Below are positions 44,080 to 60,975 of a DNA stretch of 64,000 nt, piece by piece. The position numbers were made by a program, and so were the translations under genes. The DNA is taken from assembly GCF_010500965.1 (NCBI RefSeq), contig NZ_QVMI01000006.1, positions 31,976-95,975 on the forward strand. Reading direction: 5' to 3'. The DNA comes from Bacteroides sp. 51 (lineage in GTDB: Bacteria > Bacteroidota > Bacteroidia > Bacteroidales > Bacteroidaceae). Numbering within the stretch: position 1 is the first letter of the stretch; each line of letters opens with the position of its first letter. The notes beneath the pieces were generated by a model. It did not search any database. It saw only the letters and a list, made by a program, of their open reading frames with translations, and was not told where the DNA came from.

Positions 44080-44819
44080 AAAATATGAAAAAGATACTCC
44101 TTGTTATATTCCTATTCTTAGCCCCTTTCGCCTTACAGGCTCAGGAAGCTAAGACCCTTTTCAGTAATATCCCCGAAGCCGTATTACCATTACTTTCTTC
44201 CGTGAACCGGGCAGACTTTGTGGACTTCCTCGAAAGCAATATGAAAGCCGAAGTAAAGAATAAGTTTGGAGGTACTTCGGAAATGACAGATCTGACTTCT
44301 GATTATATCCGTATTCAGATGACATCCCGAAGTACATGGGAGATGAAAACATTGGCAGTGAATGACTCAACAAAGATAATCTGTACGGTATCCACCACTT
44401 GCGCTCCGGTTTGCGATAGTGAGGTACGCTTCTATGCTGCGGATTGGAACGAAATTCCTTCTTCCTCCTACCTGACACCTCCCGTTATGGATGATTACTT
44501 CCAATTGCTTGATTCGGCAAGACTTGATGATTATACAATTTACCGGAGCAGAATGGATATGTTACTTGCTAAAGCCAGTCTGTCAAAAGAAGATAATACG
44601 CTGACTTTCACTTTAACTACTCCTGAATATGCGGGTAAAAGAAGTGCTGATGATGAAAATGAAATCGCTAACATAGACGAGTTTCTTCGTAAACCATTAG
44701 TGTTTGTTTGGGAAAGTGAACCGGATTCAGGTAGTTATCAGTTTACAGCCTCACCCCAGCCCTCTCCTTTGGAGAGGGCTGGGGTGAGGCTTTCACTCCT
44801 GTCTGTACGACGCCTTTAG
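44076..44819 (+). CDS. Hypothetical secreted protein
   Basis: Signal peptide LAPFALQAQE and an ATGA overlap with the EamA gene. The 3' end runs through a perfect hairpin. Confidence 0.5.
   Translation: MKNMKKILLVIFLFLAPFALQAQEAKTLFSNIPEAVLPLLSSVNRADFVDFLESNMKAEVKNKFGGTSEMTDLTSDYIRIQMTSRSTWEMKTLAVNDSTKIICTVSTTCAPVCDSEVRFYAADWNEIPSSSYLTPPVMDDYFQLLDSARLDDYTIYRSRMDMLLAKASLSKEDNTLTFTLTTPEYAGKRSADDENEIANIDEFLRKPLVFVWESEPDSGSYQFTASPQPSPLERAGVRLSLLSVRRL
44749..44791. repeat. Perfect 20-bp-stem hairpin (GCCTCACCCCAGCCCTCTCC TTT GGAGAGGGCTGGGGTGAGGC) at convergent gene ends
   Basis: Visible directly in the sequence. Shares the C-rich/TTTGGAG/G-rich core with the element at 35345-35472. Likely a bidirectional terminator. 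Confidence 0.8.
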
Positions 44820-45467
44820 TATCCAGTATTGTGTGTCTTCTGTGTTGATATCAAAGGGATATTCAATCCAGGTGTTGAGTGATAATGATATATTGTTATC
44901 TTTTTCTTTATATACTCCCCATTTTATGCCTTCGGCGTTAACCATGATGCCTAACTTCCCGATAATCCGGTGAATGTTCTCCTTTACCACTTCCTCATAG
45001 ATCAGAATATCTCCATTCTTATAATCGAATCCGCTGGGTAGGTTTTCCTGGTTCTCTACTTCTATGGCGATTAACTTAAACTTCGAATTACTGGGTACGG
45101 TGATTTGGGGTAACGAGCTTAAGAACTCTTCGCTCATAAATTGAGCAATATAATCATTTATATATAATATAGGTATATAAGGAACCTGCGTTAACTGCTG
45201 TGTTACTTTTAGCTTTTCAGTTTCCACTACCAATGCAGTGTTGTAGTGCAACAATTCATTTACCGACAATTCTTTTTCTATAAGGCTGGTTAGCGGAATG
45301 CTAAAATAATTAGCAATCTTCACCAATGTCTCTATTTTAGGCTCTGCACGAAACTCTTCATATGACGAAATGTTGCCTCTGGTAAGGTGAAACAGGTCTG
45401 CAAAGGCTTGCTGGCTCAACCCCTTTATATTCCTTATCTTTTTTATGTTTTTACCTATCTTTGTCAT
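44793..45467 (-). CDS. XRE-family HTH regulator with C-terminal LexA/CI (S24)-like beta domain, apparently without the catalytic Ser
   Basis: N-terminal HTH (KIRNIKGLSQQAFADLFHLTRGNISSYE). C-terminus NGDILIYEEV ... GKLGIMVNAEG ... GVYKEKD has an S24-like pattern. Confidence 0.6.
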   Translation of the reverse strand: MTKIGKNIKKIRNIKGLSQQAFADLFHLTRGNISSYEEFRAEPKIETLVKIANYFSIPLTSLIEKELSVNELLHYNTALVVETEKLKVTQQLTQVPYIPILYINDYIAQFMSEEFLSSLPQITVPSNSKFKLIAIEVENQENLPSGFDYKNGDILIYEEVVKENIHRIIGKLGIMVNAEGIKWGVYKEKDNNISLSLNTWIEYPFDINTEDTQYWILKASYRQE

Positions 45468-45584
45468 TATTTTGCTAAAAAAGTTTGCAGATTAAATTTC
45501 TTTGCCTATATTTGCTAAAAGCATTTGCAAATCTAAGATTTAATTTGCTCAAAAACAAGAGAAATGAGGGAAATTAATGATTTA

Positions 45585-45656
45585 CTGTAGGGGCGGTTCG
45601 TGAACCGCCCAATGCCCGGAAACAATTTTCGGGCGCTTCGCGAACCGCCCCTACAG
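45585..45656. repeat. MITE/REP-like element, copy 2 (same family as 40399-40477)
   Basis: CTGTAGGGGCGGTTCGTGAACCGCCC-24 nt-GGGCGCTTCGCGAACCGCCCCTACAG. Confidence 0.8.
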
Positions 45657-45701
45657 TATTCCTATACTGAACTGAATAGAAACAAGTAAAACCATAAACA
45701 A

Positions 45702-46088
45702 ATGTTCAGAAAGATAGAAGAATATATCACAAGGTTGGGATACTCCATCTCATACCAAAGTAAAGCGGATGGTATCTTTTGTATTGAGAATGAACCCGAT
45801 GGTATCAAGAATCTCATTGTCGGTGTTGCTCCTCCCATCCTTATTATGGAGCAGTACATCTTCACCCTTAAAAGTGATGATCCTGAAATCCTGAAAGCCT
45901 TGTTGAAGAAGAACAGGGATATTATTCACGGTGCTTTTGTGCTGGATGAAGAAGGACGCAAAGTAATCTTCCGGTATACGATGCAAATCGAGAATCTGGA
46001 TATAAATGAATTCGAAGGAGCATTGAACTCATTAGGTCTGCTCCTTGGCGAATACTACGAACAAATTATTGAATTCTCTAAAAAATAA
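45702..46088 (+). CDS. YbjN-like protein (putative sensory-transduction regulator / chaperone-like fold)
   Basis: 128 aa. A small acidic alpha/beta protein with a YbjN-family-like pattern. Sits immediately upstream of the PspA homolog, a known co-occurrence. Confidence 0.5.
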   Translation: MFRKIEEYITRLGYSISYQSKADGIFCIENEPDGIKNLIVGVAPPILIMEQYIFTLKSDDPEILKALLKKNRDIIHGAFVLDEEGRKVIFRYTMQIENLDINEFEGALNSLGLLLGEYYEQIIEFSKK

Positions 46089-46795: not shown

Positions 46796-46894
46796 ATGAT
46801 AGTGGATTTTCAAGTAATAATATTATCTTTGGCTCTCATAATATTGTCATTGATTATTTTGATTCTATCAATCATTTCTATATTACTACTATGA
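46796..46894 (+). CDS. Possible 32-aa single-TM peptide coupled to the NfeD gene
   Basis: MIVDFQVIILSLALIILSLIILILSIISILLL*. The stop TGA overlaps the ATG of the next gene. An AT-rich open frame is the alternative explanation. Confidence 0.3.
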   Translation: MIVDFQVIILSLALIILSLIILILSIISILLL

Positions 46895-47595
46895 CCGAAC
46901 TACTGCACAACCTGACACATCCGTTGCCCAATGCGGTTATGACCGTTGTCATGGCTATACTCGTGATTTATTGGTTGTTCGTATTCTTTAGTGGTGCCGG
47001 ATTGGACGATCTTGACCTGGGGTTCGACTTTGATGTCGATATTGACGCAGCCGAACCCGAACCGGTTGATGTTGACGCTGATGGTGGTGCTGACGATGTA
47101 GAACCTTCAACAGAAAAGTCGCCGGGATTCTTTATGAAGTTCCTGAGTTTTATGAACGTGGGTAAGGTACCTTTTATGCTGATTCTTTCCACACTTAAAT
47201 TCTTTATGTGGGTAGGTACGCTCATAACCACTTCGTTCATTAACATTACAGGGTGGGGCACGCTGTCCGTACTAATCCTTGTTCCTTTGTTTTTCGTTGG
47301 ATTGTTTTTTACTAAATTATCTACTAATCCTTTAGTGAAACTCTTTAAAGAAATAGGCTATAAAGGCGAAGAAGCGATCGACTTTCTAGGACGTTCCGGA
47401 AAGATGGTTTCTTCGATTAAGGATGATAAGATAGGCTGTGCAGAAGTGATTGTCGATAAAAACCCAATCAAACTCAACGTGAAGAGTATAGACGGTGAAG
47501 AATTGAAATATGGTGATTATATCATCATTGCTGACGAATCGGATGACAAAAAGCTCTATCTGGTGAGCAAAGAAATTAGTATTCGGAACATATAA
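46891..47595 (+). CDS. NfeD-like membrane protein (TM region plus C-terminal OB-fold); flotillin partner
   Basis: TM helices and an acidic linker (DLDLGFDFDVDIDAAEPEPVDVDADGG). C-terminal GRSGKMVSSIKDDKIGCAEVIV ... YGDYIII resembles the NfeD C-domain. Confidence 0.65.
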   Translation: MTELLHNLTHPLPNAVMTVVMAILVIYWLFVFFSGAGLDDLDLGFDFDVDIDAAEPEPVDVDADGGADDVEPSTEKSPGFFMKFLSFMNVGKVPFMLILSTLKFFMWVGTLITTSFINITGWGTLSVLILVPLFFVGLFFTKLSTNPLVKLFKEIGYKGEEAIDFLGRSGKMVSSIKDDKIGCAEVIVDKNPIKLNVKSIDGEELKYGDYIIIADESDDKKLYLVSKEISIRNI

Positions 47596-47629: not shown

Positions 47630-49819
47630 ATGGGAGAACTCATTATCATTATAGCGGGCGCTGCTATATTTATTCTGCTGGTCATTATGGGTATGCTGGC
47701 CACATTCTACAAGAAAATACCTCAGGGAAAAGCAATTGTACGTACGGGTGTCGGTGGCACCAAAGTAGCCTTTAATAAAGGTATGTATGTCATTCCAATT
47801 TTCCACAAGATGGAAATTATGGATATTTCTTTGAAGAAAGTACAGATTGAGAGAATGCAGCATGACGGGTTGATCTGTAAAGACAATATCCGTGCCGATA
47901 TCAAGGTGGCTTTCTTTGTACGTGTAAACAAATCCATCAACGATGTTATTAACGTAGCACAGTCTATCGGCTGTTCACGTGCCAGTGATATTTCAACGCT
48001 GAAAGATATCTTCGAAGCTAAGTTCTCTGAAGCGTTGAAAACAGTGGGTAAGAAGTTTGACTTTATTGAACTCTACGAAGCACGCCGCGAGTTCCGCGAT
48101 GAAATTATCAATATCATCGGTACAGATCTGAATGGGTATGTACTGGACGACTGTGCGATTGACTACCTGGAACAAACCGAACTGCAATTTCTGAGTCCGG
48201 ATAATATTCTCGACTCCGAAGGTATCCGTAAGATCACAGACCTGACTGCTGCTCAGAATATCAAAGCTAATCTGATTCGTCGTGAAGAAGAAAAAGTAAT
48301 CAAAAAACAAGATGTTGAAGCACGCGAAGCGATTCTGGAACTTGAAAGACAACTTGCCGAGAAAGAAGAAAAGCAAAGACGCGAAATAGACAATGTAAAG
48401 GCTCGTGAAGAAGCTGAGATCCAAAAGGTACGCGAGGAAGAACGACTGAAATCTGAAACGGTACGCATCTCTACGGAAGAGTCATTGGCTGTGCAGGAAG
48501 AAAACAAACTGCGCCAAATCATTATTGCCGAGAAGAATAAGCAAAGAACCGAAGCGGTCGAAGCAGAGCGTGTAGAAAAAGACCGTGCATTGGAACAGAC
48601 CGAGCGCGAACGTATCGTGACCTTGTCGCAAATTGACAAAGAACGTGCAATTGAAGTTGAGAAAAAGAATATTCAGGATGTGATCCGCGAGCGTGTACAA
48701 CTCGAAAAAGGCGTGGTGGAAGAACAACAGAATATCAAAGATATTGAAGCGTTCAGAAGTGTAGACCGTAAGAAGCAAGTCGGCATAACCGAAGCATCAC
48801 AAGAAGCGGAACAACATTTAATTGAAACGGTGAAAGGTGCCGAAGCTGCAAAACTCGCCGCCGAAGAAAAAGCTAAACAATTACTGATTGATGCCGAGGC
48901 TCAGAAAGAAGCATCTGCTAAACAAGCCGAAGCACGCAAGATATTGGCCGATGCAAAGGCACGTGAGGATGCAACTTATGGTTTGGCAGAAGCCGAAGTA
49001 ATCAAAGCGAAAGCCGAAGCCCTTGAACAACAAGGTATGGCAGAAGCTGTGGTGATTGAGAAGAAGGCCAAAGCCGAAGCAATAGGTATTGAAGCCAAAG
49101 CCGAAGCGAAGAAAAAAGAAGGGTTGGTAGAAGCCGAAGTAACCAAGGAAAAAGCTATGGCATCTGCTGTAGGTGAAGCCAGCATCATTGAGAAAACATC
49201 GTTGGCGGAAGCTACCGGTATCGAAGCGAAAGCCGAAGCTAAGCGTAAGGAAGGTTTGATGGAAGCGGAAGTGCTGAAAGAAAAGGCATTGGCAGAAGCT
49301 ACGGGAATCGAAGAAAAGGCGGCTGCAATGAAGAAACTGGATGGTGCCGGAAAAGAACATGAAGAGTTCAAACTTGCCCTGCAAAAAGACAAGGATGTGG
49401 AACTGGCTCAGATCGCTATACAGAAAGATATTGCCGATGCTCAGGCTCATGTGTTGTCGGAAGCACTCAAGAATGCAGATATTGATATTGTTGGTGGCGA
49501 AACCATGTTCTTTGAGAATATTGTTAAGCAAATCTCTAACGCCAAAGGCTTTGATCGTCTGGTTAATGAAAGCGAAAACGCTACTCAAATCAAGGGTGCA
49601 TTGCTTGGCAATGGTGGCTCGGAAGGTGATTTGTTTGAACGTATCCGCTATTTTGCAAATCGCTTGAATATCTCTACGGATGATGTGAAGAATTTAAGTA
49701 TTGCTGCCCTTATTCTTAAAATGCAGAGTCAGTGTACCAGTGAAGAGGACAAAGGCTTCTTAGGTAGCTTGATGAACATGGCGAAGTCTATGGGAATCAG
49801 CAATAAAAAACTCAATTAA
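47630..49819 (+). CDS. Flotillin-like SPFH/Band-7 protein with a long coiled coil and EA-rich repeats
   Basis: N-terminal TM plus SPFH core (KGMYVIPIFHKMEIMDISLKKVQIE...). C-terminal IEAKAEAKKKEGLVEAEV... repeats are typical of the flotillin C-terminus. Confidence 0.85.
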   Translation: MGELIIIIAGAAIFILLVIMGMLATFYKKIPQGKAIVRTGVGGTKVAFNKGMYVIPIFHKMEIMDISLKKVQIERMQHDGLICKDNIRADIKVAFFVRVNKSINDVINVAQSIGCSRASDISTLKDIFEAKFSEALKTVGKKFDFIELYEARREFRDEIINIIGTDLNGYVLDDCAIDYLEQTELQFLSPDNILDSEGIRKITDLTAAQNIKANLIRREEEKVIKKQDVEAREAILELERQLAEKEEKQRREIDNVKAREEAEIQKVREEERLKSETVRISTEESLAVQEENKLRQIIIAEKNKQRTEAVEAERVEKDRALEQTERERIVTLSQIDKERAIEVEKKNIQDVIRERVQLEKGVVEEQQNIKDIEAFRSVDRKKQVGITEASQEAEQHLIETVKGAEAAKLAAEEKAKQLLIDAEAQKEASAKQAEARKILADAKAREDATYGLAEAEVIKAKAEALEQQGMAEAVVIEKKAKAEAIGIEAKAEAKKKEGLVEAEVTKEKAMASAVGEASIIEKTSLAEATGIEAKAEAKRKEGLMEAEVLKEKALAEATGIEEKAAAMKKLDGAGKEHEEFKLALQKDKDVELAQIAIQKDIADAQAHVLSEALKNADIDIVGGETMFFENIVKQISNAKGFDRLVNESENATQIKGALLGNGGSEGDLFERIRYFANRLNISTDDVKNLSIAALILKMQSQCTSEEDKGFLGSLMNMAKSMGISNKKLN

Positions 49820-49830
49820 TTTACTATTTA

Positions 49831-49880
49831 CCATTTACAATTTACCATTTGCTATGTAGGCTTGGTGAATTGTAAATGGT
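49831..49880. repeat. Hairpin (15-bp arms, 1 mismatch) after the flotillin gene
   Basis: CCATTTACAATTTAC ... GTGAATTGTAAATGG. Confidence 0.65.
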
Positions 49881-49900
49881 GGTTGTAATCCGTTCGTTAA

Positions 49901-49930
49901 ATTGTAAATTGTAAATCGTAAATGGTAAAT
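49901..49930 (+). repeat. ATTGTAA/ATCGTAA heptad repeats running into the ATG of the 1606-aa gene
   Basis: ATTGTAAATTGTAAATCGTAAATGGTAAAT with the ATG at 49922. The same motif class as 43121-43179. Confidence 0.7.
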
Positions 49931-52900
49931 ATAGAAGCCGGTACCTACGAAATCATAAAGAAGCGCCTTCAGGTGCAGAAAGATGATTTGGTGAAACGCC
50001 TTAACTCCCTCAACGAGGAGCGTAAGGAAGTATTTTCGTCAACGGACTTTTCATTAATAGCCAATCAACGTATAACTACCGAGAACAACTGTGAATCCAG
50101 AGGAATTATCGCTTTCGGTAACCTCTGTATCTTCGGTTATAATGTTCATTTCGGTTTGCGTTCGGATATACAGTTAAGTGATGTATTCAGTATCTATCTT
50201 TTCGAGAACAACCAGTTTATTCCTCAACCGCTCGATCTGATCAATGACGAAACGTTCATCACCGACTTTAAAAACCTCTACAAGTACTATCGCGACTCCA
50301 TCTTCTCTAAATTCAGAAGAACCGAGAACTACCTGTACATGATCTTCCAGACCAGCAAAAACCTGGGTGACGAGAAAGCATTCAAATGGCTTATTAAAGG
50401 AAATAAGCTCATTTATCAGGACGACAGAAGCATACACGAAGTTGTTAAAGCCCCTCAGCATGAGTTCAAGTGGATTAAAACCACGCTTGAAGATCGTCGC
50501 CTGGGAGCATATCCCCACGTTTCCATCCTCGATAAAGTATTTATCGAAGCCACAGGTGGAGATATTACTTTTAAGATTGAAGATAATACCCAGACCGGAA
50601 AAGGTATCTATGCAGAGAAAGTTGAAAATAAAGACCAACAACTCGATGATGCCGATTATTATTATGCCGATTTGGGCAACCTGATCCTGATTCGTATCAA
50701 ACCCTATCAGGAAGATTTCCGTGCGTTTGTATTCAATACCCGCACCAAAGAAGTGGTCAACATAAAGATGCTGAATGATGCCGGGATTCTTTTGCCCGAT
50801 AATCATGGCGTTATATTTCCCAATGGATATTATCTCCAGAACGGAGAGTCTAAAATATTCGAAAGCAATCTCGAAAATCTGGAATTCTTTCGCAAGGTTG
50901 TTTCCCCTAATGGAGAAGATTTCCTGTATATCTTCTATCAGAATGAACGGAATATCTACGTATTGATGTCGTACAATATCATCAAGCAGCAGGTAGAAAC
51001 GCCGATTATTTGTAATGGACATACGCTTTATAAAGATGGGACCTTGATCTTTTTCCGTTCCGAGCAGGAAGCTACCCGCCACCATCAGGTGCAGATATGG
51101 CAAACTCCATATCCGTTACAGCTTCCCGAAAACTATGAAAAAAGAGATAACATCCTTTATAAGATTGGAAATAAGTCCATCGTAAAAGCGATGGCAGAAT
51201 GCCAGGAAGTAATTCATCTGATAAACAAAGAAGATACTTACGAAGGGCTATATGATGATATTGTAAAGAAATCTAATGATATTGTTGATGCTTATTTCTG
51301 GGTAACCGATAGTGGAACCTTTGCACTATCAGAGCCTCTCTTGCAAATAAAAGACGTAGCTAATACGGCTATTGATGAGTTTGAGAAGGTAAAACAACAG
51401 AAGAAACACTCTGCCGAGGTGCTTGAAACTACAACGGATAAAGTGGATAAGTTGCTCTTTGCTATTAAGAACTCCAAATACGATTCTCTTGAGCAGTTGG
51501 TAAAGCTACTGGCAGATACCCGCAAGCTACAAGGTGAGGTTATTGAGCTTGTCAACCTGCGTTATATTGATCTGGAGAAAATAGACGCACTCAAAGCAAC
51601 GTTAGTCAAAACTGCTGTCGACCTTTCCGACAAAACGGTTGAGTTTTTGTTGAAAGATGAGGCTTTATTACCTTATGAAGCCAAAGTGGTAGAACAAAAG
51701 AAGCTGGTTGAGCAGGTCGAAAAGGTTATTGATGCCAATAGAATAGAAGAAAACTGCAAAGAAATATCGGCAGAGCTTGAACTGCTTATTGATATACTGA
51801 ATAGCCTTAAAATAGAAGATACCACCCAAACTACACGTATCATAGAGAAAATATCTCTGATATTTTCCTCCCTGAACGAGGTGCGGGCACAACTCAAAAA
51901 GAAAGTTGACTCTTTAAAGAGTAAAGAAGCTGTTGCCGAATTTCGTGCACAGCTTACGCTTTTGGAGCAGAGCATCGTTAACTTTCTTGAACTGGCTACT
52001 ACGCCCGATAAATGCGATGAGTATTTCACCAAGGTAAGCGTACAAATCGAAGAATTGGAAAGTAAATTTGCCGATTTCGACGAGTTTATCCTTATCATAG
52101 CCGATAAACGAAATGAAGTAGTCAAAGCCTTCGATGGACGGAAAGCTCAGTTGATCGAACAAATCAACCGTCGCACGGCTTCGCTGGAACAGATCGGGCT
52201 TCGTGTACTGAAAAATGTAGAAAACAAAGCTCAGTCTTTCAAGTCTAAGGAGGAGATACAAGCGTTTTACTCTACCGACCTGATGGTGGACAAAGTGCGC
52301 AAACTTGTCGAAGACCTTAAAGAATTAGGAGATGTTTCCAAGGCTGAGAATCTGGAAAACAGTCTTAAAACTTCTCTTGAAGATGCATTGCGTATCCTTA
52401 AAGATAAAACAGAACTCTTTGTTGATGGGGAGAATATCATCTCATTGGGTAATTATAAGTTTGCCGTAAACAAGCAGTCATTGGATCTTACCGTTGTACG
52501 GCGGGATACTAACTTGCTGTTTCATCTTACCGGAACAAACTTCTATCATTCACTAAAGAATGATGCGGTAAATAACTACCAGGATATTTGGGAGCAGGAA
52601 GTGGTTTCGGAAAACAAATTAGTGTACCGTGCCGAATACCTGGCTTATCTCGCTTTCCAGGAATCCCAGATCACCAAAGACTTTGATGCCCGGGCTTTTA
52701 TCACTAAAAAAATCGAAAACAGTTATTCCGAATCCTACCTGAAAGGAGTTCACGACTTTGATGCCATAAGCATTTACGAAGCTTTGACTTCCATTCACGA
52801 GCAACTCGGTGTTCTATCTTTCCGTCCGCAGGTGAGGGTAGCTGCGCAACTCTTTTGGTACAGCATTAAGGACGAACAAAGAAACCTGCTTCGCGGATTG

Positions 52901-54742
52901 ATTATTTCTGCAAACAATGTACTGAAAGCCTTTCCGGCTTCCAACAACTATCAATATGTACTGAAAAGCATTCAGGAAGTCTATAACGCCTGGAATACTT
53001 ACTTTAACTCTGCTACGATACGTCCGGAAAAGATCGCCATGTATCTGTTCTGCGAGTTTGGAGATAATTCGGCGTTTACTGTTAGCGAGCAATCCAAGGA
53101 GTTCAAGCAACTCTTCCTACATTATTTAAAAGAACAGAAACTTGCCGAGAACTTCCGCTTGGACCTTGAAGATAAATCATTCAGTTCAGTAGAACGTTTC
53201 TCTTTGACTCGCAACTGGCTGGCATCCTTTATCAATCTGTCTGATGACTATTTGAAGTATAAAAAGTATATCGGCGAAGCCGCTTGTCAACTCCTGCTGC
53301 AAGAATACGAGTTCGAATTGCGCCGAAGCCCGGATGTGATTGAAATAAATGACCTGCGCGGTACGCACCCTGTAATCATAAACAATGAGTATAAGATTGA
53401 CTATCATCGCTTTATACAGAAACTCAATCATTTCATTTCGGCGAGTGTACCAAGATTCAATGAGTTTACTGCGCTTAAGGAGAAAGCTATTCAGGATTAC
53501 CGGAAATCGTTGAAGATAAACGAATTAAAACCCCGTGTCCTGACTTCATTTGTACGTAATAAATTGATCAATCAGGTTTATCTTCCATTAATTGGTGCTA
53601 ATCTGGCTAAGCAACTGGGAGTTGCCGGTGATGCCAAACGTACGGCACGTATGGGTATGTTGCTTTTATTGTCTCCTCCGGGATATGGTAAAACCACGCT
53701 AATGGAGTATCTGGCAAGCATCATGGGGCTTAACTTTGTGAAGATCAATGGTCCGACTATCGGCCACTCTATTACCTCCATCGACCCCGAAGAGGCCAAG
53801 ACTTCCGGTGCGCGTGAGGAATTAAAGAAGATCAATCTTTCTTTTGAAATGTCAGATAACGTAATGCTTTATCTGGATGATATTCAGCACTGTAGCTCCG
53901 AATTCTTGCAGAAGTTTATTTCCCTTGCCGATGGCCAGCGCAAGATGGACGGTACTTTCGACGGCGAAAGCAAAACGTATGACCTACGCGGAAAACGTTT
54001 CTGCGTGGTGATGGCCGGAAACCCATATACCGAAAGCGGTGATAAGTTCCAGATTCCCGATATGCTTGCGAACCGTGCCGATGTCTACAACCTGGGAGAT
54101 GTAATCGGAGATTTGGCTAACCTCTTCAATCTGAGTTTGCTCGAGAATGCTATCGTCGAGAATCCCTATACGCAGAAAATCGCCGGAAAGAGCTTTGCCG
54201 ATTTCTACAATCTGGTAGATTATGTAGAGACAGGGGCAGAACTAATGCCCGACCTGGAAGCAAACCATACACAGCAGGATATAGACGACTTTATCGCTGT
54301 GATTAAAAATGCTCTGCTGGTACGCAACATTGTGCAGAAAGTCAATCAGAATTATATTGCAAGTGCCGCCATGCAGGATGCTTACCGGGTGGAACCACCA
54401 TTCAAACTGCAAGGTTCTTACCGTGATATGAACAAGATGATCGGGCAGATTGTGCCTCTGATGAACAAACAGGAAGTTATCAGTCTGGTGTTAACGCACT
54501 ATGAAAGCGAATCACAGACCCTGACTGCCGATAGCGAAGCTAATCTCTTGAAACTGAAAGAGCTTGCCGGTTTGTTGTCTAAAGAAGATGCCGAAAGATG
54601 GGCGCATATAAAAGACGTGTTTAATAAGAACAATAAGTTGGCGGGCATTGATCAGAATAACCAAGCCGGACAGGTTATTGCGCAATTGGCCGAGTTCAAC
54701 GATAACCTGGCAGGAATAAAGAACGCGATTGTAAAGAAGTAA
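49922..54742 (+). CDS. Giant (1606 aa) multi-domain protein: beta-rich N-terminal region, about 500-aa coiled coil, alpha-helical region, C-terminal MoxR/AAA_5-type P-loop ATPase
   Basis: Walker A LLLSPPGYGKTTLMEY (about 53680). Walker B VMLYLDDIQH (about 53875). MoxR-like sensor VVMAGNPYTESGDKFQIPDMLANRADVYNL (about 54005). Confidence 0.7.
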   Translation: MVNIEAGTYEIIKKRLQVQKDDLVKRLNSLNEERKEVFSSTDFSLIANQRITTENNCESRGIIAFGNLCIFGYNVHFGLRSDIQLSDVFSIYLFENNQFIPQPLDLINDETFITDFKNLYKYYRDSIFSKFRRTENYLYMIFQTSKNLGDEKAFKWLIKGNKLIYQDDRSIHEVVKAPQHEFKWIKTTLEDRRLGAYPHVSILDKVFIEATGGDITFKIEDNTQTGKGIYAEKVENKDQQLDDADYYYADLGNLILIRIKPYQEDFRAFVFNTRTKEVVNIKMLNDAGILLPDNHGVIFPNGYYLQNGESKIFESNLENLEFFRKVVSPNGEDFLYIFYQNERNIYVLMSYNIIKQQVETPIICNGHTLYKDGTLIFFRSEQEATRHHQVQIWQTPYPLQLPENYEKRDNILYKIGNKSIVKAMAECQEVIHLINKEDTYEGLYDDIVKKSNDIVDAYFWVTDSGTFALSEPLLQIKDVANTAIDEFEKVKQQKKHSAEVLETTTDKVDKLLFAIKNSKYDSLEQLVKLLADTRKLQGEVIELVNLRYIDLEKIDALKATLVKTAVDLSDKTVEFLLKDEALLPYEAKVVEQKKLVEQVEKVIDANRIEENCKEISAELELLIDILNSLKIEDTTQTTRIIEKISLIFSSLNEVRAQLKKKVDSLKSKEAVAEFRAQLTLLEQSIVNFLELATTPDKCDEYFTKVSVQIEELESKFADFDEFILIIADKRNEVVKAFDGRKAQLIEQINRRTASLEQIGLRVLKNVENKAQSFKSKEEIQAFYSTDLMVDKVRKLVEDLKELGDVSKAENLENSLKTSLEDALRILKDKTELFVDGENIISLGNYKFAVNKQSLDLTVVRRDTNLLFHLTGTNFYHSLKNDAVNNYQDIWEQEVVSENKLVYRAEYLAYLAFQESQITKDFDARAFITKKIENSYSESYLKGVHDFDAISIYEALTSIHEQLGVLSFRPQVRVAAQLFWYSIKDEQRNLLRGLIISANNVLKAFPASNNYQYVLKSIQEVYNAWNTYFNSATIRPEKIAMYLFCEFGDNSAFTVSEQSKEFKQLFLHYLKEQKLAENFRLDLEDKSFSSVERFSLTRNWLASFINLSDDYLKYKKYIGEAACQLLLQEYEFELRRSPDVIEINDLRGTHPVIINNEYKIDYHRFIQKLNHFISASVPRFNEFTALKEKAIQDYRKSLKINELKPRVLTSFVRNKLINQVYLPLIGANLAKQLGVAGDAKRTARMGMLLLLSPPGYGKTTLMEYLASIMGLNFVKINGPTIGHSITSIDPEEAKTSGAREELKKINLSFEMSDNVMLYLDDIQHCSSEFLQKFISLADGQRKMDGTFDGESKTYDLRGKRFCVVMAGNPYTESGDKFQIPDMLANRADVYNLGDVIGDLANLFNLSLLENAIVENPYTQKIAGKSFADFYNLVDYVETGAELMPDLEANHTQQDIDDFIAVIKNALLVRNIVQKVNQNYIASAAMQDAYRVEPPFKLQGSYRDMNKMIGQIVPLMNKQEVISLVLTHYESESQTLTADSEANLLKLKELAGLLSKEDAERWAHIKDVFNKNNKLAGIDQNNQAGQVIAQLAEFNDNLAGIKNAIVKK

Positions 54743-55434: not shown

Positions 55435-58400
55435 ATGAAGAAAAAGCTGATTCTATTATGCAGGCTGCTGGCAAGTTTATCCCTGCCAACCGTAGGAGTA
55501 AATGCGCAGACAGTGACAAACGACCACAAGCTGGTCTACCCTTATTCCTTCGCCCCCAGCGAAGGTATAGTAAACAAAACCGAGAAAGAATACCGCAAGG
55601 AAATCTGCCTGAACGGTTACTGGGACTTCCAACCCGTGGCCCTTCCCCCGGATTACAAGCAAGAAAAAGGCATCGCCCCCACCTTGCTATTGCCCACAGG
55701 CAACGGCTGGAGCAGTACACGCATCAAAATACCCTCTCCGTGGAACATCAATGCATTTGCCAATCGCGATCTTGAAGGTCCCGACCATCGCAACTACCCC
55801 TCATACCCCAAAGAATGGGAACAAGTGAAGATGGCATGGATGAAGAAAACCTTCACCATCCCCGCCGACTGGCAAGGCCAGCAAATCAAACTCTACTTCG
55901 AAGCTGTAGCCGGCTACGCCGAGGTATACGTAAACAAAGAAAAAGTGGGCGAGAACTTCGACCTCTTCCTGCCCTTCAGCCTCGATATTACCGACAAGGT
56001 AACCCCCGGCCAAGCCCTGGAACTGCTCGTTGGCGTACGCAGCCAGTCGCTATTTGAAGACAATTCCACGATTGGCCGCCGCATCCTGCCCGCCGGCTCC
56101 ATGTGGGGAGGCCACATCAATGGTATCTGGCAAGACGTCTACCTGTTGGCACTGCCCAAACTCCATGTAGAAGACGTATATGTGAAACCCCTGGTGTCCG
56201 AAAACAGACTGGAACTGGAAGTAACCCTACAAAACAACACCGATAAAAAGGCCGACGTGCAACTGCAAGGCAACATCCGCGAATGGATAAACCGTGCCGG
56301 AACCGATGTGAACTCAGCACCTGTCCCCACCTGGACACTCGGAATGGAAGCCTTGCAGGTAGCCCCTGCCAAAGTATCCGTACCAGCCAACGCATCGCAG
56401 AAAGTAACCCTGCAAGTGCCTGTAAGCGAAGGCGCACTGGCCTATTGGACACCCGAACACCCGAACCTCTATGCCCTGTTGCTCTCCCTAAAAGATAAAA
56501 AGCAAACCGTTGACACGAAATACGAACGCTTTGGCTGGCGCGAATGGACATTGCAGGGAACTACGCAGTATTTAAACGGCCAACCCTACGCCCTGCGTGG
56601 CGACTCGTGGCACTTCATGGGCGTTCCGCAGATGACCCGCCGCTATGCCTGGGCATGGTTTACCGCCATTAAAGGCATGAATGCCAATGCCGTCCGCCCC
56701 CATGCACAAATCTATCCCCGTTTCTACCTCGATATGGCCGACGAGATGGGCATCTGTGTGATGAACGAAACCGCCAACTGGGCCAGCGACGGCGGACCGA
56801 AGCTCGACTCCGACCTCTTCTGGGAAGCATCCAAAGAACACCTGCGTCGCTTTGTTCTGCGCGATCGCAACCATGCTTCCGTCTTCGGCTGGAGCATCAG
56901 CAACGAAAACAAACCCGTTATCCTCCACGTCTATAACCGTCCCGAACTGATGGTTCCGCAAAAGAAAGCATGGGAAGAGTGGCGCGACATTGTCCGTCAA
57001 TACGACCCCACCCGTCCGTGGATATCAGCCGACGGCGAAGACGATGGCGATGGCATCCTGCCCGTAACTGTAGGTCATTATGGCGACCTGAATTCTATGA
57101 AACGTTGGGTAGAAATCGGCAAGCCCTGGGGCATCGGCGAGCACAGTATGGCCTACTATGGCACCCCCGAGCAAGTCTCTAAATACAACGGAGAGCGTGC
57201 CTATGAATCGCAGGAAGGCCGCATGGAAGGTCTGGCCAACGAGTGCTATGACCTCATAGCCAATCAGCGCCGCATGGGAGCATCGTACAGCACCGTGTTC
57301 AACATGGCCTGGTATGCCTTGAAGCCCCTTCCGCTGGGCAAGAAAGATACAGGCAAAGCCCCTTCTGCGGTCGAAGACGGTATATTCTTCGGCGAATATA
57401 AAGAAGGCATTCCGGGCGTACAACCCGAACGCGTAGGTCCGTACTGCACTACGTTCAATCCGGGTTACGACCCCAGTCTGCCGCTGTATGAAGAGTGGCC
57501 CATGTATGGCGCCATGCGTGCTGCCAATGCACCGGGCGGGCCGGCGTGGAGTGCGTATGCCACCATCGACAAGAAGCAATACGAAGCTCCCAAAGCCCTG
57601 GCGCCTGCCGGAAACTATAAAGAAGTCGTTTTCATCGGTAATACAGACAGCCGCTTAAAGGAACTGATGGATGCGCAAGGCGTGAAGTTTACCACTAAGG
57701 TAACCACTCCCGCACAGCTGCTTTACATTGTAGACGGTAGCCAACCAACAGATGCCGCCACAAAGAAAGAAATGCAAAAACAAATAACCAAAGGAGCCGA
57801 TGTCTGGATCTGGGGATTGATGCCCGAAACCGTAGCCGGATACAATGAACTCCTACCGTATCCCGTGGCTTTGGATGAATTGAAACGCTCCTCCTTCCTC
57901 CCTGTGCAAAAGTCATGGATGCGCGGACTGAATAATTCCGATTTCTACTTCTGCGAGCTTCAAAAAGCAGATGCCTCCCGCTATTCGCTGAAAGGCACGT
58001 TTGTAGAAGAAGGAGAAGTCCTGCTGAATGCCTGCAAAACAGACTGGCGCAAATGGAACAAACGTCCGGAAGAGATCAAAACAGCCGGAACCATCCGCAG
58101 CGAATACGAATGTACAGCCGCCACTCCGGTATTTGTGAGCTGCCGCCAGGGAGCGTCTGCTTTCTACCTCAGCACCCTGACCGAGTTTGCCAATTCGGAA
58201 AAAGGCTATAACACCCTTGCCGCTATCCTGGAGCACGCCGGTGTGGCTTGCGAGAAACCGGAGGTGAACATCGACGAGGTATTCTTCCTGCGCGATGAGC
58301 AGATGAACTTCCCCGTAATCACTAAGAACAAGATGGTCGAAGAGGGCGATGGATACGCATTGGAACTTTACGTGTTCACTCCCCGCCCTCTGGACGACTT

Positions 58401-58674
58401 ATTGATAGAACCCAATATGCCCAAACTCTCCCTGTTTGTCAAAGCAAAGAGTCGCCAGTTGTTTATCAACAACAAGCCTTATACCGCAATGTCTCAGGAA
58501 GGACGCAACGAAGCAACCTACAAAGAATTGCCCCTGTTGCAAGGCTGGAACAAACTCGTTCTCAAGGTGGGAAGCGGAGACAGGAATGATTTCACCGGAT
58601 ACTTTAAATGTGATAATCAGAAGCCATTCCTCTCGTTGCTGAAAGCAGCGTTTGTGAATCCGGAGGTGAAGTAA
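55435..58674 (+). CDS. Glycoside hydrolase family 2
   Basis: Signal peptide, GH2 sugar-binding domain (GYWDFQPV...), and TIM barrel with the WSISNEN acid/base motif. Confidence 0.8.
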   Translation: MKKKLILLCRLLASLSLPTVGVNAQTVTNDHKLVYPYSFAPSEGIVNKTEKEYRKEICLNGYWDFQPVALPPDYKQEKGIAPTLLLPTGNGWSSTRIKIPSPWNINAFANRDLEGPDHRNYPSYPKEWEQVKMAWMKKTFTIPADWQGQQIKLYFEAVAGYAEVYVNKEKVGENFDLFLPFSLDITDKVTPGQALELLVGVRSQSLFEDNSTIGRRILPAGSMWGGHINGIWQDVYLLALPKLHVEDVYVKPLVSENRLELEVTLQNNTDKKADVQLQGNIREWINRAGTDVNSAPVPTWTLGMEALQVAPAKVSVPANASQKVTLQVPVSEGALAYWTPEHPNLYALLLSLKDKKQTVDTKYERFGWREWTLQGTTQYLNGQPYALRGDSWHFMGVPQMTRRYAWAWFTAIKGMNANAVRPHAQIYPRFYLDMADEMGICVMNETANWASDGGPKLDSDLFWEASKEHLRRFVLRDRNHASVFGWSISNENKPVILHVYNRPELMVPQKKAWEEWRDIVRQYDPTRPWISADGEDDGDGILPVTVGHYGDLNSMKRWVEIGKPWGIGEHSMAYYGTPEQVSKYNGERAYESQEGRMEGLANECYDLIANQRRMGASYSTVFNMAWYALKPLPLGKKDTGKAPSAVEDGIFFGEYKEGIPGVQPERVGPYCTTFNPGYDPSLPLYEEWPMYGAMRAANAPGGPAWSAYATIDKKQYEAPKALAPAGNYKEVVFIGNTDSRLKELMDAQGVKFTTKVTTPAQLLYIVDGSQPTDAATKKEMQKQITKGADVWIWGLMPETVAGYNELLPYPVALDELKRSSFLPVQKSWMRGLNNSDFYFCELQKADASRYSLKGTFVEEGEVLLNACKTDWRKWNKRPEEIKTAGTIRSEYECTAATPVFVSCRQGASAFYLSTLTEFANSEKGYNTLAAILEHAGVACEKPEVNIDEVFFLRDEQMNFPVITKNKMVEEGDGYALELYVFTPRPLDDLLIEPNMPKLSLFVKAKSRQLFINNKPYTAMSQEGRNEATYKELPLLQGWNKLVLKVGSGDRNDFTGYFKCDNQKPFLSLLKAAFVNPEVK

Positions 58675-58704
58675 ATTGAATCTAACTAAAAACAAAGATA
58701 TATC

Positions 58705-60975
58705 ATGAAACTTACACATCTGTTAGCCTCCGGGGCCATCGTCTTGATGTTGGGCGCATGTAGTGGAATGCAGCAACAAGCAACGACCAAAACCCCTGTC
58801 GATTATGTAAATCCGTATGTTGGAAACATCAGCCACCTGTTGGTGCCCACGTTTCCCACGATCCAGTTGCCCAACAGTATGCTCCGCGTTTATCCCGAAC
58901 GTGCCGACTATACCACGGAGTTACTGAACGGCCTTCCTCTCATTGTGACCAATCATCGTGAGCGCTCGGCCTTTAACCTCAGCCCCTATCAGGGCGACAA
59001 CCTGCGCCCGGTCGTTACTTATACATATGACAACGAGCGGTTGACGCCCTATTCTTATAGTGCGAACATAGAGCCAACCGACACCGGTAATCATATGAAA
59101 GTGAATTATGCCCTTTCCCATCAGTCGGCACTCTACCACATTGCGTACGGAACAGACGAACCGGCGTACGTCATTGTAAATAGCCGCAACGGAGCCATTC
59201 ATGTGGGGGTAAACTTTATCAGCGGCCATCAGCGATTGAACGACAATACAAAGGTTTACTTATACATCGAGCCGCAAGAGAAACCCGTAGCTGCCGGCGT
59301 TCTGGAGAATGGAAAGATCGAAATAAGCAAAGATAATGCCGAGGGAAAGAACGTTTGTGCCGCCTGGCGCTTTGCCGACGGAACCCAGAGTGTGAGTCTG
59401 CGCTACGGCATCTCCTTTATCAGCGAAGAGCAAGCCGAGAAGAATCTGCGCCGCGAACTGAAAGATTACAATGTGCAGGCTCTGGCCGATACCGGTCGCC
59501 GGATCTGGAACGAAACCCTGGGACAAATTCAGGTACAAGGCGGCACGGAAGAAGATAAAACGGTGTTCTATTCCTCTTTCTACCGTACCTTCGAACGCCC
59601 CATCTGTATGAGCGAAGACGGACATTACTTCAGCGCTTTCGATGGCAAGGTGCATGACGATGAAGGTACTCCTTTCTATAACGACGACTGGATCTGGGAT
59701 ACCTACCGCGCTGCCCATCCGCTTCGCGTACTGCTTGACCAGAAGAAAGAGGAAGAAATCATCACCTCCTTCCTGCGCATGGCCGAGCAAATGGGCACCA
59801 TGTGGATGCCTACCTTCCCCGAAGTAACCGGCGACTCACGCCGCATGAACTCCAATCATGGTGTAGCCACCGTGGCCGATGCCCTGATTAAAGGTTTGAA
59901 GATAGATACGCTGAAAGCCTATGAAGCCTGTCGCAGAGGTATTGAAGAGAAAACCCTCGCCCCCTGGTCGGGAGCACCCGCCGGCTGGATTGATGAATTC
60001 TATCTGGATCATGGGTATATCCCTGCGCTCCAACCCGGCGAGAAAGAAACCGATCCCAATGTGCATCATTTCGAAAAGCGCCAGCCCGTGGCTGTTACGT
60101 TGGGTACAAGCTACGACCAGTGGTGCCTTTCGCGCATTGCCGAGGCGCTGGGTAAGCCCAAAGAAGCGGCTTACTACCTGGAATGCTCCCGCAATTACCG
60201 GAACCTCTTTAACCCGGAGACAGCTTTCTTTCATCCTAAAGACAAAGACGGGCGCTGGATAGAACCTTTCGATTACCGCTACTCAGGCGGTATGGGTGCC
60301 CGCGAGTATTATGGCGAAAACAACGGTTGGGTGTATCGTTGGGATGTGCCTCACAACGTAGCCGATCTGATCAACCTGATGGGTGGCCGGGAGGCTTTCA
60401 TCTCCAACCTGGAGCGTACTTTCCGCGAACCGTTGGGGCGTGGCAAGTATGAATTCTATTCCACATTGCCCGACCATACCGGCAACGTGGGGCAGTTTTC
60501 TATGGCCAACGAACCGTCACTGCACATACCTTATTTATATAACTATGCCGGACAGCCCTGGAATACGCAGAAGCACATCCGCAAGATGCTAAAGACCTGG
60601 TTCCGCAACGACCTGATGGGCATGCCCGGCGATGAAGATGGGGGAGGAATGACTTCGTTTGTGGTCTTCTCTTCGCTGGGATTCTATCCTGTAACTCCCG
60701 GTTTCCCGGCATACAATATCGGAAGCCCGCTTTTTACGAATGCAAAGATTACGTTGAGCAACGGGAAGGTGTTTGAAATTGAAGCACAGAATGCTTCCGA
60801 TGAAAACAAGTATATCCAGTCGGCCACGCTGAATGGTCAGGAGTGGAACAAGCCTTGGTTCAGTCATGATAGTTTGATGGAAGGTGGTAAATTGGTATTA
60901 GTCATGGGCGACCTTCCGAATAAGAAATGGGGTAGCGAAGCAGAGAATGCTCCTCCCTCGGTTGATAAGGAATGA
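58705..60975 (+). CDS. Glycoside hydrolase family 92 (alpha-mannosidase-like) lipoprotein
   Basis: Lipobox LGACS and YVNP..G N-motif. Segments FISEEQAEKNL..GGTEEDKTVFYSSFYR and PGDEDGGGMTSFVVFSSLGFYPVTPG are collinear with GH92 family members. Confidence 0.85.
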   Translation: MKLTHLLASGAIVLMLGACSGMQQQATTKTPVDYVNPYVGNISHLLVPTFPTIQLPNSMLRVYPERADYTTELLNGLPLIVTNHRERSAFNLSPYQGDNLRPVVTYTYDNERLTPYSYSANIEPTDTGNHMKVNYALSHQSALYHIAYGTDEPAYVIVNSRNGAIHVGVNFISGHQRLNDNTKVYLYIEPQEKPVAAGVLENGKIEISKDNAEGKNVCAAWRFADGTQSVSLRYGISFISEEQAEKNLRRELKDYNVQALADTGRRIWNETLGQIQVQGGTEEDKTVFYSSFYRTFERPICMSEDGHYFSAFDGKVHDDEGTPFYNDDWIWDTYRAAHPLRVLLDQKKEEEIITSFLRMAEQMGTMWMPTFPEVTGDSRRMNSNHGVATVADALIKGLKIDTLKAYEACRRGIEEKTLAPWSGAPAGWIDEFYLDHGYIPALQPGEKETDPNVHHFEKRQPVAVTLGTSYDQWCLSRIAEALGKPKEAAYYLECSRNYRNLFNPETAFFHPKDKDGRWIEPFDYRYSGGMGAREYYGENNGWVYRWDVPHNVADLINLMGGREAFISNLERTFREPLGRGKYEFYSTLPDHTGNVGQFSMANEPSLHIPYLYNYAGQPWNTQKHIRKMLKTWFRNDLMGMPGDEDGGGMTSFVVFSSLGFYPVTPGFPAYNIGSPLFTNAKITLSNGKVFEIEAQNASDENKYIQSATLNGQEWNKPWFSHDSLMEGGKLVLVMGDLPNKKWGSEAENAPPSVDKE

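Follow-up and report, generated by a model that had tools for sequence, protein, structure and literature searches.

The 1606-codon gene described here stands at the end of a conserved module (cHTH regulator, CesT, PspA, YqiJ, flotillin and ATPase) and encodes a soluble, cytoplasmic member of a family defined by DUF3686, DUF7902 and AAA+ domains. From gene order and fold we propose, with moderate confidence, that its role is most likely the ATP-dependent remodelling of a flotillin/NfeD scaffold. The gene lies within a 64,000-nucleotide stretch of Bacteroides sp. 51 DNA, referred to below as the window; features are listed in Table 1.

Table 1. Features of the giant ATPase gene and its operon, in window coordinates
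Feature	Position (nt)	Strand	Residues, extent or basis
Divergent regulator, 224 aa	44793..45467	-	Xre/Cro-type HTH plus C-terminal LexA/S24-like β domain
Divergent promoter/leader region	45468..45701	.	direct reading of sequence
CesT/Tir-like chaperone, 128 aa	45702..46088	+	Pfam CesT_Tir_1, E 1.3e-49
PspA/IM30 (ESCRT-III superfamily), ~232 aa	46093..46791	+	Pfam PspA_IM30, E 2.7e-42
YqiJ/YuaF (NfeD-like) membrane protein	46891..47595	+	Pfam YqiJ_N, E 4.5e-7
YqiK-type flotillin, 729 aa	47630..49819	+	hhalign vs E. coli YqiK
AT-rich inverted repeat	49819..49930	+	fills flotillin-ATPase spacer, overlaps ATPase start codon
Giant ATPase gene	49922..54742	+	1606 aa plus stop codon; single uninterrupted frame, ATG start
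Divergent β-propeller, DUF3686 core	50042..51121	+	aa 41-400; propeller fold in model
Helical bundle and segmented coiled coil	51122..52417	+	aa 401-832
DUF7902, motif block in mid coiled coil	51659..51907	+	aa 580-662; Pfam
Middle region	52418..53521	+	aa 833-1200; secondary structure of model
AAA+ α/β core	53522..54106	+	aa 1201-1395
Walker A GYGKTT	53681-53698	+	aa 1254-1259
Walker B (DD) LYLDDIQ	53867-53887	+	aa 1316-1322
Pre-sensor-1 β-hairpin			aa 1341-1354; strands 1341-1346 and 1349-1354, between α3 and β4 (model)
Sensor-1 N1367	54020-54022	+	within VVMAGNP, aa 1362-1368
Candidate Arg finger R1385	54074-54076	+	within ANRADV, aa 1383-1388
Lid and helical C-terminal region	54107..54739	+	aa 1396-1606, ~210 aa

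Family membership and previous description

The open reading frame was confirmed as one unbroken plus-strand frame, but the original description of the product as a protein of unknown type did not survive comparison with the databases. Pfam DUF3686 (PF12458) matches residues 22-459 over the entire profile (positions 1-448 of 448, E 1.3e-166) and DUF7902 (PF25472) is matched at E 3.6e-26, with one AAA+ module located C-terminally to both. More than 4,000 colinear homologs with the same Pfam families, most of them automatically labelled "DNA repair ATPase", are present in NCBI and UniRef. The family comprises 1,231 clusters at 50% identity and is found in at least eight phyla, including members from Streptomyces, Pseudomonas plasmids, Proteus and Vibrio. 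The window protein is 81-83% identical to named homologs and 93% to one further homolog, and a TM scan returned no transmembrane segments.

The same locus was described by Ravi et al. 2024 (mSystems, PMC11237479), with a cHTH regulator, CesT/Tir, PspA, YqiJ/YuaF, Band-7/flotillin and the ATPase. Theirs is a computational description made without experiment, with an example locus in Dokdonia donghaensis (around ANH61663.1), in which the ATPase is termed "β-propeller + coiled-coil + AAA-ATPase" and its clade is given only as 'novel AAA+'. Domain order, the five-gene operon and the divergent cHTH+protease regulator are all alike in their protein and ours, and there is no essential difference between the two. 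Because operon and architecture were published in 2024, the window gene adds one more ortholog and is not a discovery. What extends beyond that description are the features of the ATPase module, the length of the coiled coil, the breadth of the YqiJ/flotillin linkage and the optional nature of PspA and CesT. Our literature search found no experimental work on the DUF3686/PF12458 family or its link to flotillin.

Gene neighbourhood and candidate partners of the ATPase

We compared 80 Bacteroidota loci, in five of which fewer than 850 bp are available upstream, leaving 75 informative for flotillin. Since the peptide patterns derived for it recognise the Bacteroidota subfamily alone, the contig scan of genomes did not extend beyond Bacteroidota; other phyla were reached through a representative search and a profile search. 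A YqiK-type flotillin precedes the giant gene in every informative Bacteroidota locus (75/75, or 75/80 overall), and a YqiJ-like protein is encoded in 72 of the 80 and in other phyla as well. Both lie ahead of the giant gene in Planctomycetota, Acidobacteriota, Sumerlaeota, Actinomycetota and the Pseudomonas plasmid pQBR103, and the individual loci at which flotillin precedes the gene include those of Gimesia, Sulfidibacter, Sumerlaeota, a gammaproteobacterial MAG, Streptacidiphilus, Streptomyces, pQBR103 and Hymenobacter. The flotillins at these individual loci are 36-53% identical to that of the window. In at least six phyla, then, no informative locus lacks the flotillin and YqiJ-like context, and the membrane-scaffold link first suggested by the window's own gene order is strengthened.

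The flotillin was identified by profile alignment with E. coli YqiK (hhalign probability 99.9%, E 4.9e-33, 381 columns); direct sequence and profile searches of Pfam and PDB with the 729-residue protein gave no match, and its Streptacidiphilus ortholog has a Pfam Band_7 match. Its N-terminal TM helix and SPFH core are followed by a long coiled coil rich in Glu and Ala, and its C-terminal tail is conserved. The YqiJ-like protein (BLASTP E 5e-6 against E. coli YqiJ) has three TM-like segments in a TM scan, an acidic linker and a C-terminal β domain. Between flotillin and ATPase genes, the inverted repeat has 32-nt arms that are 91% complementary (MFE -33.5 kcal/mol, z -4.3), and the corresponding spacers of other loci carry unrelated hairpins.

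PspA, also confirmed as a neighbour by its Pfam match, had been placed on a par with flotillin, which overstates its constancy. CesT is conserved in 57 of the 80 loci, and PspA together with CesT in 57-58 of the 80, but PspA and CesT are missing from the loci of Myroides, some Dysgonomonas, Planctomycetota, Acidobacteriota, Sumerlaeota and Actinomycetota. They are an optional add-on to the flotillin-ATPase module. The PspA linkage has at least two separate origins, each with its own chaperone family: CesT_Tir_1 in the Bacteroidota and YjfI on pQBR103. In the window, the mechanical PspA reading frame opens at 46045, and translation probably begins from the ATG at 46093; orthologs are 230-238 residues long. 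Coupling between SPFH proteins and PspA is described as experimentally known in B. subtilis (PMC8581546).

The linkage to PspA raises the alternative that the ATPase is a counterpart of Vps4, in which case its substrate would be the ESCRT-III-like PspA polymer, disassembled or recycled at the expense of ATP, and flotillin would be merely a membrane platform. Recent reviews state that bacteria have no Vps4-like ATPase for PspA, PspA and a CesT-like chaperone share the operon in the window and in most Bacteroidota loci, PspA is linked through another chaperone family in pQBR103, and the surroundings of the P-loop resemble those of classical AAA proteins. Nevertheless, flotillin stays constant where PspA is absent (Myroides, some Dysgonomonas and the loci of four phyla), Pfam finds no MIT domain and the aromatic pore loop is absent, and we consider a Vps4-like role distinctly improbable.

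The divergent regulator (Pfam HTH_19/HTH_3, E 1e-10) is retained upstream of CesT in 57 of the 80 loci, always with CesT and PspA. It is 'cHTH+Protease' in Table S3 of Ravi et al. 2024 (PMC11237479). Its Hymenobacter ortholog is annotated as 'LexA family'. At the position that we take to correspond to LexA's GDSM the window protein reads ENQEN, and the catalytic Ser thus seems to be absent. The promoter/leader region contains direct repeats of the form TTTGCTAAAA-N-TTTGCA, which may constitute an operator to judge from their sequence, as well as a TATATTTG element and a GC-rich REP-like palindrome (45590-45651) that occurs again at 40403-40474 (8 matches vs 0 expected).

The LexA-like architecture of the regulator might be taken to agree with the database name of the family, according to which the protein would be a DNA-repair ATPase. 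Pfam DUF3686 and thousands of entries bear that name, but evidence supporting it was not found, nor did the literature search yield a paper tying the family to DNA repair; it is an unvalidated label. Weak RuvB_N/RuvB matches do cover the P-loop, although they extend over only ~50 residues around Walker A and score 22 bits against a cut-off of 282. Searches of Pfam, NCBIfam and PDB detected no DNA-binding, nuclease or helicase domain and no SMC/Rad50/RecN-type ABC head, the sole NTPase being the contiguous C-terminal AAA+ module. Moreover, RecA-stimulated self-cleavage requires a catalytic serine that, by our own reading, appears to be missing from the regulator, and the conserved neighbours are all membrane-associated. 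No full-length homology to a characterised DNA-repair-like family without a membrane link emerged, the membrane link is strong, and a function in DNA repair appears extremely improbable.

A further alternative is a role in defence, in which the module would act against phage or by abortive infection through membrane scaffolds. Defence systems often include large NTPases of several domains, propellers and coiled coils among them, the module is distributed like a cassette with variable flanks, and on the pQBR103 megaplasmid it lies beside a DNA methyltransferase. However, only 13 of 72,556 plasmid records carry it, and identity between sequences tracks taxonomy, suggesting that descent was mostly vertical. 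PADLOC reported nothing significant for the five proteins (best mad8, E 5e-4, P-loop only) and Pfam revealed no nuclease, toxin or other effector domain. A defence function is thus very unlikely.

Architecture of the protein and its ATPase module

The domain order that had been read from the sequence, with a single C-terminal AAA module, was borne out by Pfam and by the structure model, and the motifs quoted in its support are all present (KLQGEV...TLVK at aa 535-563, GYGKTT, LYLDDIQ, VVMAGNP and ANRADV). The β-rich N-terminus, suspected of being a propeller, adopts a propeller fold in the model, for which fold comparison found no close solved relative. One length required revision: the coiled coil is real but spans ~380 rather than ~500 residues. 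The C-terminal tail is helical in the model, as described, over ~210 residues.

Structure models place helices at aa 411-499 and 816-832, and the helical stretch poor in Pro and Gly runs from ~450 to 830. Heptad periodicity attains z 3.3-4.6 at aa 505-560, 617-672 and 673-784, and prolines 472, 584 and 695 divide the stretch into approximately three segments. Within DUF7902, a ELELLIDILNSLKI-D block is nearly invariant within Bacteroidota. The middle region (~370 residues), the least conserved part of the protein, has no Pfam match even at E<=10. As predicted for the sequence leading into the P-loop, aa 839-1197 are mostly helical in the model with two small β elements: a small β domain (839-877), a helical domain (903-1125), a small β sheet (1131-1160) and a long helix (1161-1197). 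A degenerate second AAA domain occurs in a different PspA-linked ATPase (Ravi et al. 2024, PMC11237479); a second, degenerate AAA upstream of the active module was rejected here, because in aa 903-1197 the model shows nothing but helices and small β elements, with no α/β P-loop fold.

Sequence alone is insufficient to place the AAA+ module in a clade. It scores above the Pfam cut-offs of both AAA (PF00004, 32.8 bits against 21.2) and AAA_5 (PF07728, 30 bits), its PDB matches (VAT, Rix7 and p97) are classical AAA proteins and confined to the Walker A/P-loop region, and hhalign aligned the family profile with E. coli RavA and FtsH at P-loop segments only. The fold is nearest to known MoxR members and the module is of the MoxR class. 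The predicted MoxR/dynein-like (AAA_5) character is supported by the pre-sensor-1 hairpin in the model, and the traits of classical AAA proteins (no such hairpin, short spacing from sensor 1 to the Arg finger and an aromatic pore loop 1) are not those of this protein. Between β2 (1271-1276) and α2 (1295-1310), the model has an 18-residue loop with short helical turns and no predicted β-hairpin. This β2-α2 pore-loop segment is devoid of aromatic residues, which argues against threading. No VWA domain was found in the protein, its sub-regions, its window neighbours or the called genes at six distant loci.

Walker A (GYGKT), sensor 1 and R1385 are invariant among 19 diverse family members, and an invariant EPPFKLQGSYR motif in the C-terminal region includes R1501, a candidate sensor 2. 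Walker B, in contrast, ends in Asp-Asp (D1319, D1320) in all members examined instead of the canonical Asp-Glu, so that hydrolysis may be slow or absent. In some AAA modules, NSF-D2 among them, an Asp in this second position goes with ATP binding but very little hydrolysis. The protein might accordingly be a nucleotide-gated tether or scaffold and not a motor, with ATP binding and little hydrolysis switching its oligomerisation or conformation and the long coiled-coil protein connecting flotillin platforms to another cytoplasmic structure. The length of the coiled coil and the propeller, a typical platform for protein-protein interaction, are consistent with such a role. It is nevertheless unlikely, in that aspartate is able to serve as a catalytic base, N1367, R1385 and R1501 are all invariant, and the ATPase core is by far the best conserved part of the protein family-wide (0.74 vs 0.36-0.50 elsewhere), as that of an active enzyme would be.

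Proposed scaffold remodelling and comparison with known AAA+ systems

Remodelling of the flotillin/NfeD scaffold, the role that we favour, could proceed as follows. The AAA+ modules would oligomerise as a ring, probably hexameric like the rings of CbbQ, NorQ and RavA, from which the propellers and coiled-coil arms would protrude as built-in substrate adaptors, replacing the separate VWA/MIDAS partner normally used by MoxR ATPases and binding the cytoplasmic face of the flotillin/YqiJ assembly. ATP binding and hydrolysis might then shift the arms, as in midasin or dynein, such that the enzyme would pull on the scaffold from outside with no polypeptide threaded through its pore. As a result the flotillin scaffold, or clients held in it, would be assembled, disassembled or turned over, and in Bacteroidota and some Proteobacteria the module may be further coupled to the PspA membrane-repair polymer and the CesT-like chaperone. 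We advance only tentatively, as possible but doubtful, a stronger form of this proposal: a self-contained MoxR-type hexamer whose six propeller-tipped arms grip SPFH cages that are opened, disassembled or repositioned by ATP, with damaged membrane being passed to PspA in some lineages.

Flotillins and PspA form large membrane-bound assemblies. The flotillin-ATPase family is the most consistently flotillin-linked ATPase found in this analysis, and this linkage, together with its occurrence in at least eight phyla, makes the giant ATPase a concrete and testable candidate regulator of such assemblies. If the stronger form of the proposal is correct, the family would represent a new class of membrane-scaffold remodelling machine and the long-missing ATP-driven regulator of flotillin/PspA assemblies, a functional analogue, from a different AAA+ clade, of Vps4 for ESCRT-III.

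Compared with MoxR ATPases such as CbbQ, NorQ and RavA (~270-500 aa), the giant ATPase is far longer (~1,600 aa), as a propeller, a coiled coil and a helical domain (~1,200 residues in all) are fused to the N-terminal side of the module. No gene for the VWA/MIDAS partner that normally accompanies MoxR proteins was found beside it in the window or at the six distant loci, its Walker B reads LYLDD rather than hhhhDE, and the typical MoxR helix-2 β-insert is not seen in the secondary structure of the model. Midasin (Rea1/Mdn1) and dynein have six AAA modules per chain, whereas the giant ATPase has one and must therefore oligomerise; its distal domain is a propeller instead of a MIDAS (midasin) or microtubule-binding domain (dynein), and it is bacterial and flotillin-linked.

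With Vps4/CdvC it shares the proximity of its gene to an ESCRT-III-superfamily gene (PspA) and the idea of ATP-driven polymer turnover, but it belongs to another AAA+ clade, has neither MIT domain nor aromatic pore loop, and its PspA linkage is optional. FtsH in HflK/C cages is likewise an AAA+ machine that works together with a scaffold of the SPFH family at the inner membrane. FtsH, however, is a membrane-anchored classical AAA protease, whereas the giant ATPase is soluble, of a different clade and without a protease domain, and a YqiK-type flotillin, accompanied by the NfeD-like YqiJ, takes the place of HflK/C as its SPFH partner.

Family membership and domain architecture

The giant ATPase is encoded by a single unbroken ORF (49922-54742, + strand, 1606 codons, ATG start) and belongs to the DUF3686-DUF7902-AAA family. 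In Pfam, the whole DUF3686 profile (PF12458, described there as an 'ATPase involved in DNA repair') matches aa 22-459 (E 1.3e-166), DUF7902 matches aa 580-662 in the middle of the helical region (E 3.6e-26) and the C-terminal module matches two families, AAA at 32.8 bits and AAA_5 at 30 bits. These matches contradict the original prediction that the protein is of unknown type; its assignment of the ATPase to MoxR/AAA_5 holds and is sharpened by gene context and structure, and the motifs it quoted all lie where it placed them (Table). Apart from the type and the coiled-coil length, the original observation is confirmed.

More than 4,000 colinear homologs were found among 5.8 billion proteins, mostly named 'DNA repair ATPase' and sometimes 'MoxR-like ATPase'. 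When the 50%-identity representatives were searched exhaustively with aa 1-1200, 1,231 clusters reached E ≤ 1e-3 and 363 reached E ≤ 1e-30; full-length members measure 1,600-2,000 aa, with identities down to about 26%. Named members occur in Bacteroidota, Planctomycetota, Acidobacteriota, Sumerlaeota, Fibrobacterota, Gammaproteobacteria, Actinomycetota and Deinococcus; those nearest to the window's protein, at 81-83% identity, are from Bacteroides sp. and Dysgonomonas sp. Nonomuraea sp. NBC_00507 carries two paralogs (P0469 and P0470) on one 12.7-Mb contig. In a Streptomycetaceae subgroup the ATPase module is too divergent for precomputed Pfam AAA matches; the one member aligned (P0253) keeps Walker A and B.

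The model of aa 1-500 (38-sequence alignment; pLDDT 90.4, pTM 0.88) opens with a long helix (2-38), continues with about 28 β-strands (44-394), which make up roughly seven blades of four strands each, and ends in helices (411-499). Its top Foldseek matches are nearly all β-propellers (DCAF1 WD40 at E 4e-7, Vps11, IFT-A, Fbw7, paraoxonase, TolB), with probabilities up to 1.0 and TM-scores of only 0.2-0.43, and the N-terminal domain is a divergent propeller without a close solved relative. Residues ~450-830 are poor in Pro and Gly and show significant heptad periodicity in 505-560, 617-672 and 673-784 (z 3.3-4.6), so the coiled coil spans about 380 aa, not the 500 first proposed. Prolines 472, 584 and 695 split it into about three segments; it may fold back upon itself, and one long rod is not required. 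The model of aa 815-1606 (pLDDT 84.7) places a single AAA+ core between helical regions (Table); PDB sequence matches and hhalign comparisons with RavA and FtsH cover the P-loop region only. Together the models show the fold classes of the protein. It has no membrane-spanning hydrophobic segment (maximum 19-residue Kyte-Doolittle mean 1.31) and so is cytoplasmic.

Table. Features of the window locus (nt) and of the giant ATPase (aa)
Feature	Position	Strand	Basis or location
Divergent Xre-type HTH gene	44793-45467	-	Pfam
CesT_Tir_1 protein	45702-46088	+	Pfam, E 1.3e-49
PspA/IM30	likely start ATG 46093	+	Pfam, E 2.7e-42
YqiJ_N membrane protein	46891-47595	+	Pfam
729-aa protein, YqiK-type flotillin	between YqiJ-like and ATPase genes	+	profile alignment with E. 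coli YqiK
Glycoside hydrolases GH2, GH92	55435-60975		downstream of ATPase gene
Heptad-rich stretch	aa 535-563		giant ATPase
Small β domain	aa 839-877		model
All-helical domain	aa 903-1125		model
Small β sheet	aa 1131-1160		model
Long helix	aa 1161-1197		model
AAA+ α/β core, one only	aa 1214-1389		model
Walker A GYGKTT	aa 1254-1259		giant ATPase
Walker B LYLDDIQ	aa 1316-1322		giant ATPase
β-hairpin between α3 and β4 (pre-sensor-1 position)	aa 1341-1354		model
VVMAGNP	aa 1362-1368		giant ATPase
ANRADV	aa 1383-1388		giant ATPase
Helical lid and tail	from AAA+ core to C-terminus		model

Obligate and optional gene neighbors

The 729-aa neighbor has no sequence matches in Pfam or PDB, but its profile aligns with E. 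coli YqiK (probability 99.9%, E 4.9e-33, 381 columns) and it is therefore a YqiK-type flotillin. Starting PspA at its likely ATG gives a length matching the 230-238 aa of its orthologs. In 75 of 80 Bacteroidota loci the flotillin gene comes before the giant gene (the other five have <850 bp of upstream sequence), and YqiJ is present in 72. PspA (58/80), CesT (57/80) and the HTH gene (57/80) are gained or lost as a set and are absent, for example, from Myroides and some Dysgonomonas loci. Outside Bacteroidota, a small YqiJ/NfeD-like TM protein, a flotillin of ~680-780 aa and the giant ATPase recur as a trio that lacks PspA. It occurs in Gimesia (Planctomycetota), in Sulfidibacter (Acidobacteriota), in a Sumerlaeota MAG, in Streptacidiphilus and Streptomyces, and on a gammaproteobacterial contig whose end falls within the upstream flotillin gene. 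All six genes of the window's module are also present on a Hymenobacter plasmid. Across lineages outside Bacteroidota and in Hymenobacter, the flotillin is 36-53% identical to that of the window. Linkage of the giant gene to YqiK-type flotillin and YqiJ/NfeD-like protein is thus obligate and that to PspA and CesT-like chaperones optional: the former are the universal partner, the latter a recurrent add-on.

One rival reading, a PspA-specific Vps4 analogue, is made less likely by the many loci that lack PspA, and by the fold. A role in DNA repair has just the database label in its favor, for which we found no support: RuvB matches are ~50-residue P-loop stretches far under threshold, the protein has no DNA-binding or nuclease domain and its conserved neighbors are membrane proteins. 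The label may have been carried over from generic annotation categories for coiled coils or ATPases. Against a defense system stand the lack of PADLOC matches, its presence in only 13 of 72,556 plasmid records, and sequence identity that tracks taxonomy.

In some genomes an extra gene separates flotillin and ATPase, as in Sphingobacterium pedocola (L032, 8511-9944), where its product is a secreted protein of 477 aa that carries an SxxK (β-lactamase/PBP-like) motif; L008, L016, L017 and L020 have similar gaps of 1.2-1.5 kb. In a Tannerellaceae MAG (L006, 21240-24808), about 6.4 kb separate the ATPase gene from PspA, YqiJ and flotillin, which lie downstream of it on the opposite strand, rearranged yet clustered. 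On the Pseudomonas fluorescens SBW25 megaplasmid pQBR103 (L090, 986-14190), the trio follows and is fused to a polyamine operon (YjfI-PspA-rhomboid-DUF2491-DUF350-DUF1190-glutathionylspermidine-synthase-like), PspA being linked via a different CesT-like family.

The divergent regulator has a LexA/CI-like layout, with an HTH and a C-terminal β domain, and its orthologs carry the annotation 'LexA family'. The motif with the catalytic serine seems to be missing from it, and its signal may therefore be something other than RecA-stimulated cleavage. Between the regulator gene and CesT (45470-45550), TTTGCTAAAA-N3-4-TTTGCA occurs as two to three direct repeats, a candidate operator, and near 45509 an element (TATATTTG) fits the Bacteroidota -7 promoter motif. 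The CesT-PspA operon has in its 5' leader (45590-45651) a GC-rich palindrome (GGGGCGGTTCGYGAACCGCCC, in paired inverted copies), which recurs ~5 kb upstream (40403-40474). Eight matches compare with none expected, and the element resembles a REP-type repeat. The 102-bp flotillin-ATPase spacer (49819-49930) is made up of ATTTACC/ATTTACA-type repeats that fold into a long AT-rich hairpin with 32-nt arms of 91% complementarity (MFE -33.5 kcal/mol, z -4.3); its 3' arm overlies the ATPase start codon. Strong but unrelated hairpins occupy this position in several related loci (e.g. L004, L020, L048). The hairpin might act to terminate transcription in part or to slow translation, and so set the flotillin:ATPase ratio. 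The GH2/GH92 genes have a clearly higher G+C content than the module (0.51-0.55 vs 0.40-0.44), and related genomes do not keep them beside it, pointing to a block acquired separately.

Conserved ATPase features and comparison with known systems

Across 19 members (identity down to 27%), Walker A (PPGYGKT), D1319-D1320, Q1322-H1323, the sensor-1 N1367 in GNP, R1385 and a C-terminal EPPF.LQGSYR motif, with R1501 as candidate sensor 2, are invariant. Mean majority-residue frequency is highest in the ATPase core (0.74), compared with 0.50 in the propeller and 0.36 in the middle domain. No VWA/MIDAS domain, the usual MoxR partner, turned up in the protein, in its sub-regions or among its neighbors, in the window or at distant loci.

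The original idea of an enzyme acting on membrane scaffolds stands, sharpened by context and structure. The AAA+ modules would assemble as a ring, with coiled-coil arms and propellers as built-in adaptors replacing the VWA partner, and the machine would work from the cytoplasmic side on the flotillin/YqiJ scaffold or its clients. Where present, PspA would supply a coupled membrane-repair polymer, which fits the SPFH-dependent recruitment of PspA known experimentally in B. subtilis (PMC8581546). A nucleotide-gated tether with little hydrolysis is a live alternative in view of the Asp-Asp Walker B.

The finding is not new, because both architecture and operon are already published; literature searches found no experimental study of the family. 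Widespread and uncharacterised, it offers a testable candidate regulator that would use ATP to control bacterial flotillin (and PspA) assemblies. The gene order in the window is that given by Ravi et al. (2024, mSystems, PMC11237479), where the operon includes a 3TM protein of YqiJ/YuaF type and shortened operons without PspA are more widespread; pQBR103 unites two PspA context classes that those authors keep separate. Unlike standard threading AAA+ proteins, the giant ATPase has Asp-Asp instead of Asp-Glu in Walker B and no aromatic residue in the β2-α2 loop, and no helix-2 β insert appears in its model. We propose that it would act by pulling rather than threading, like midasin or dynein.
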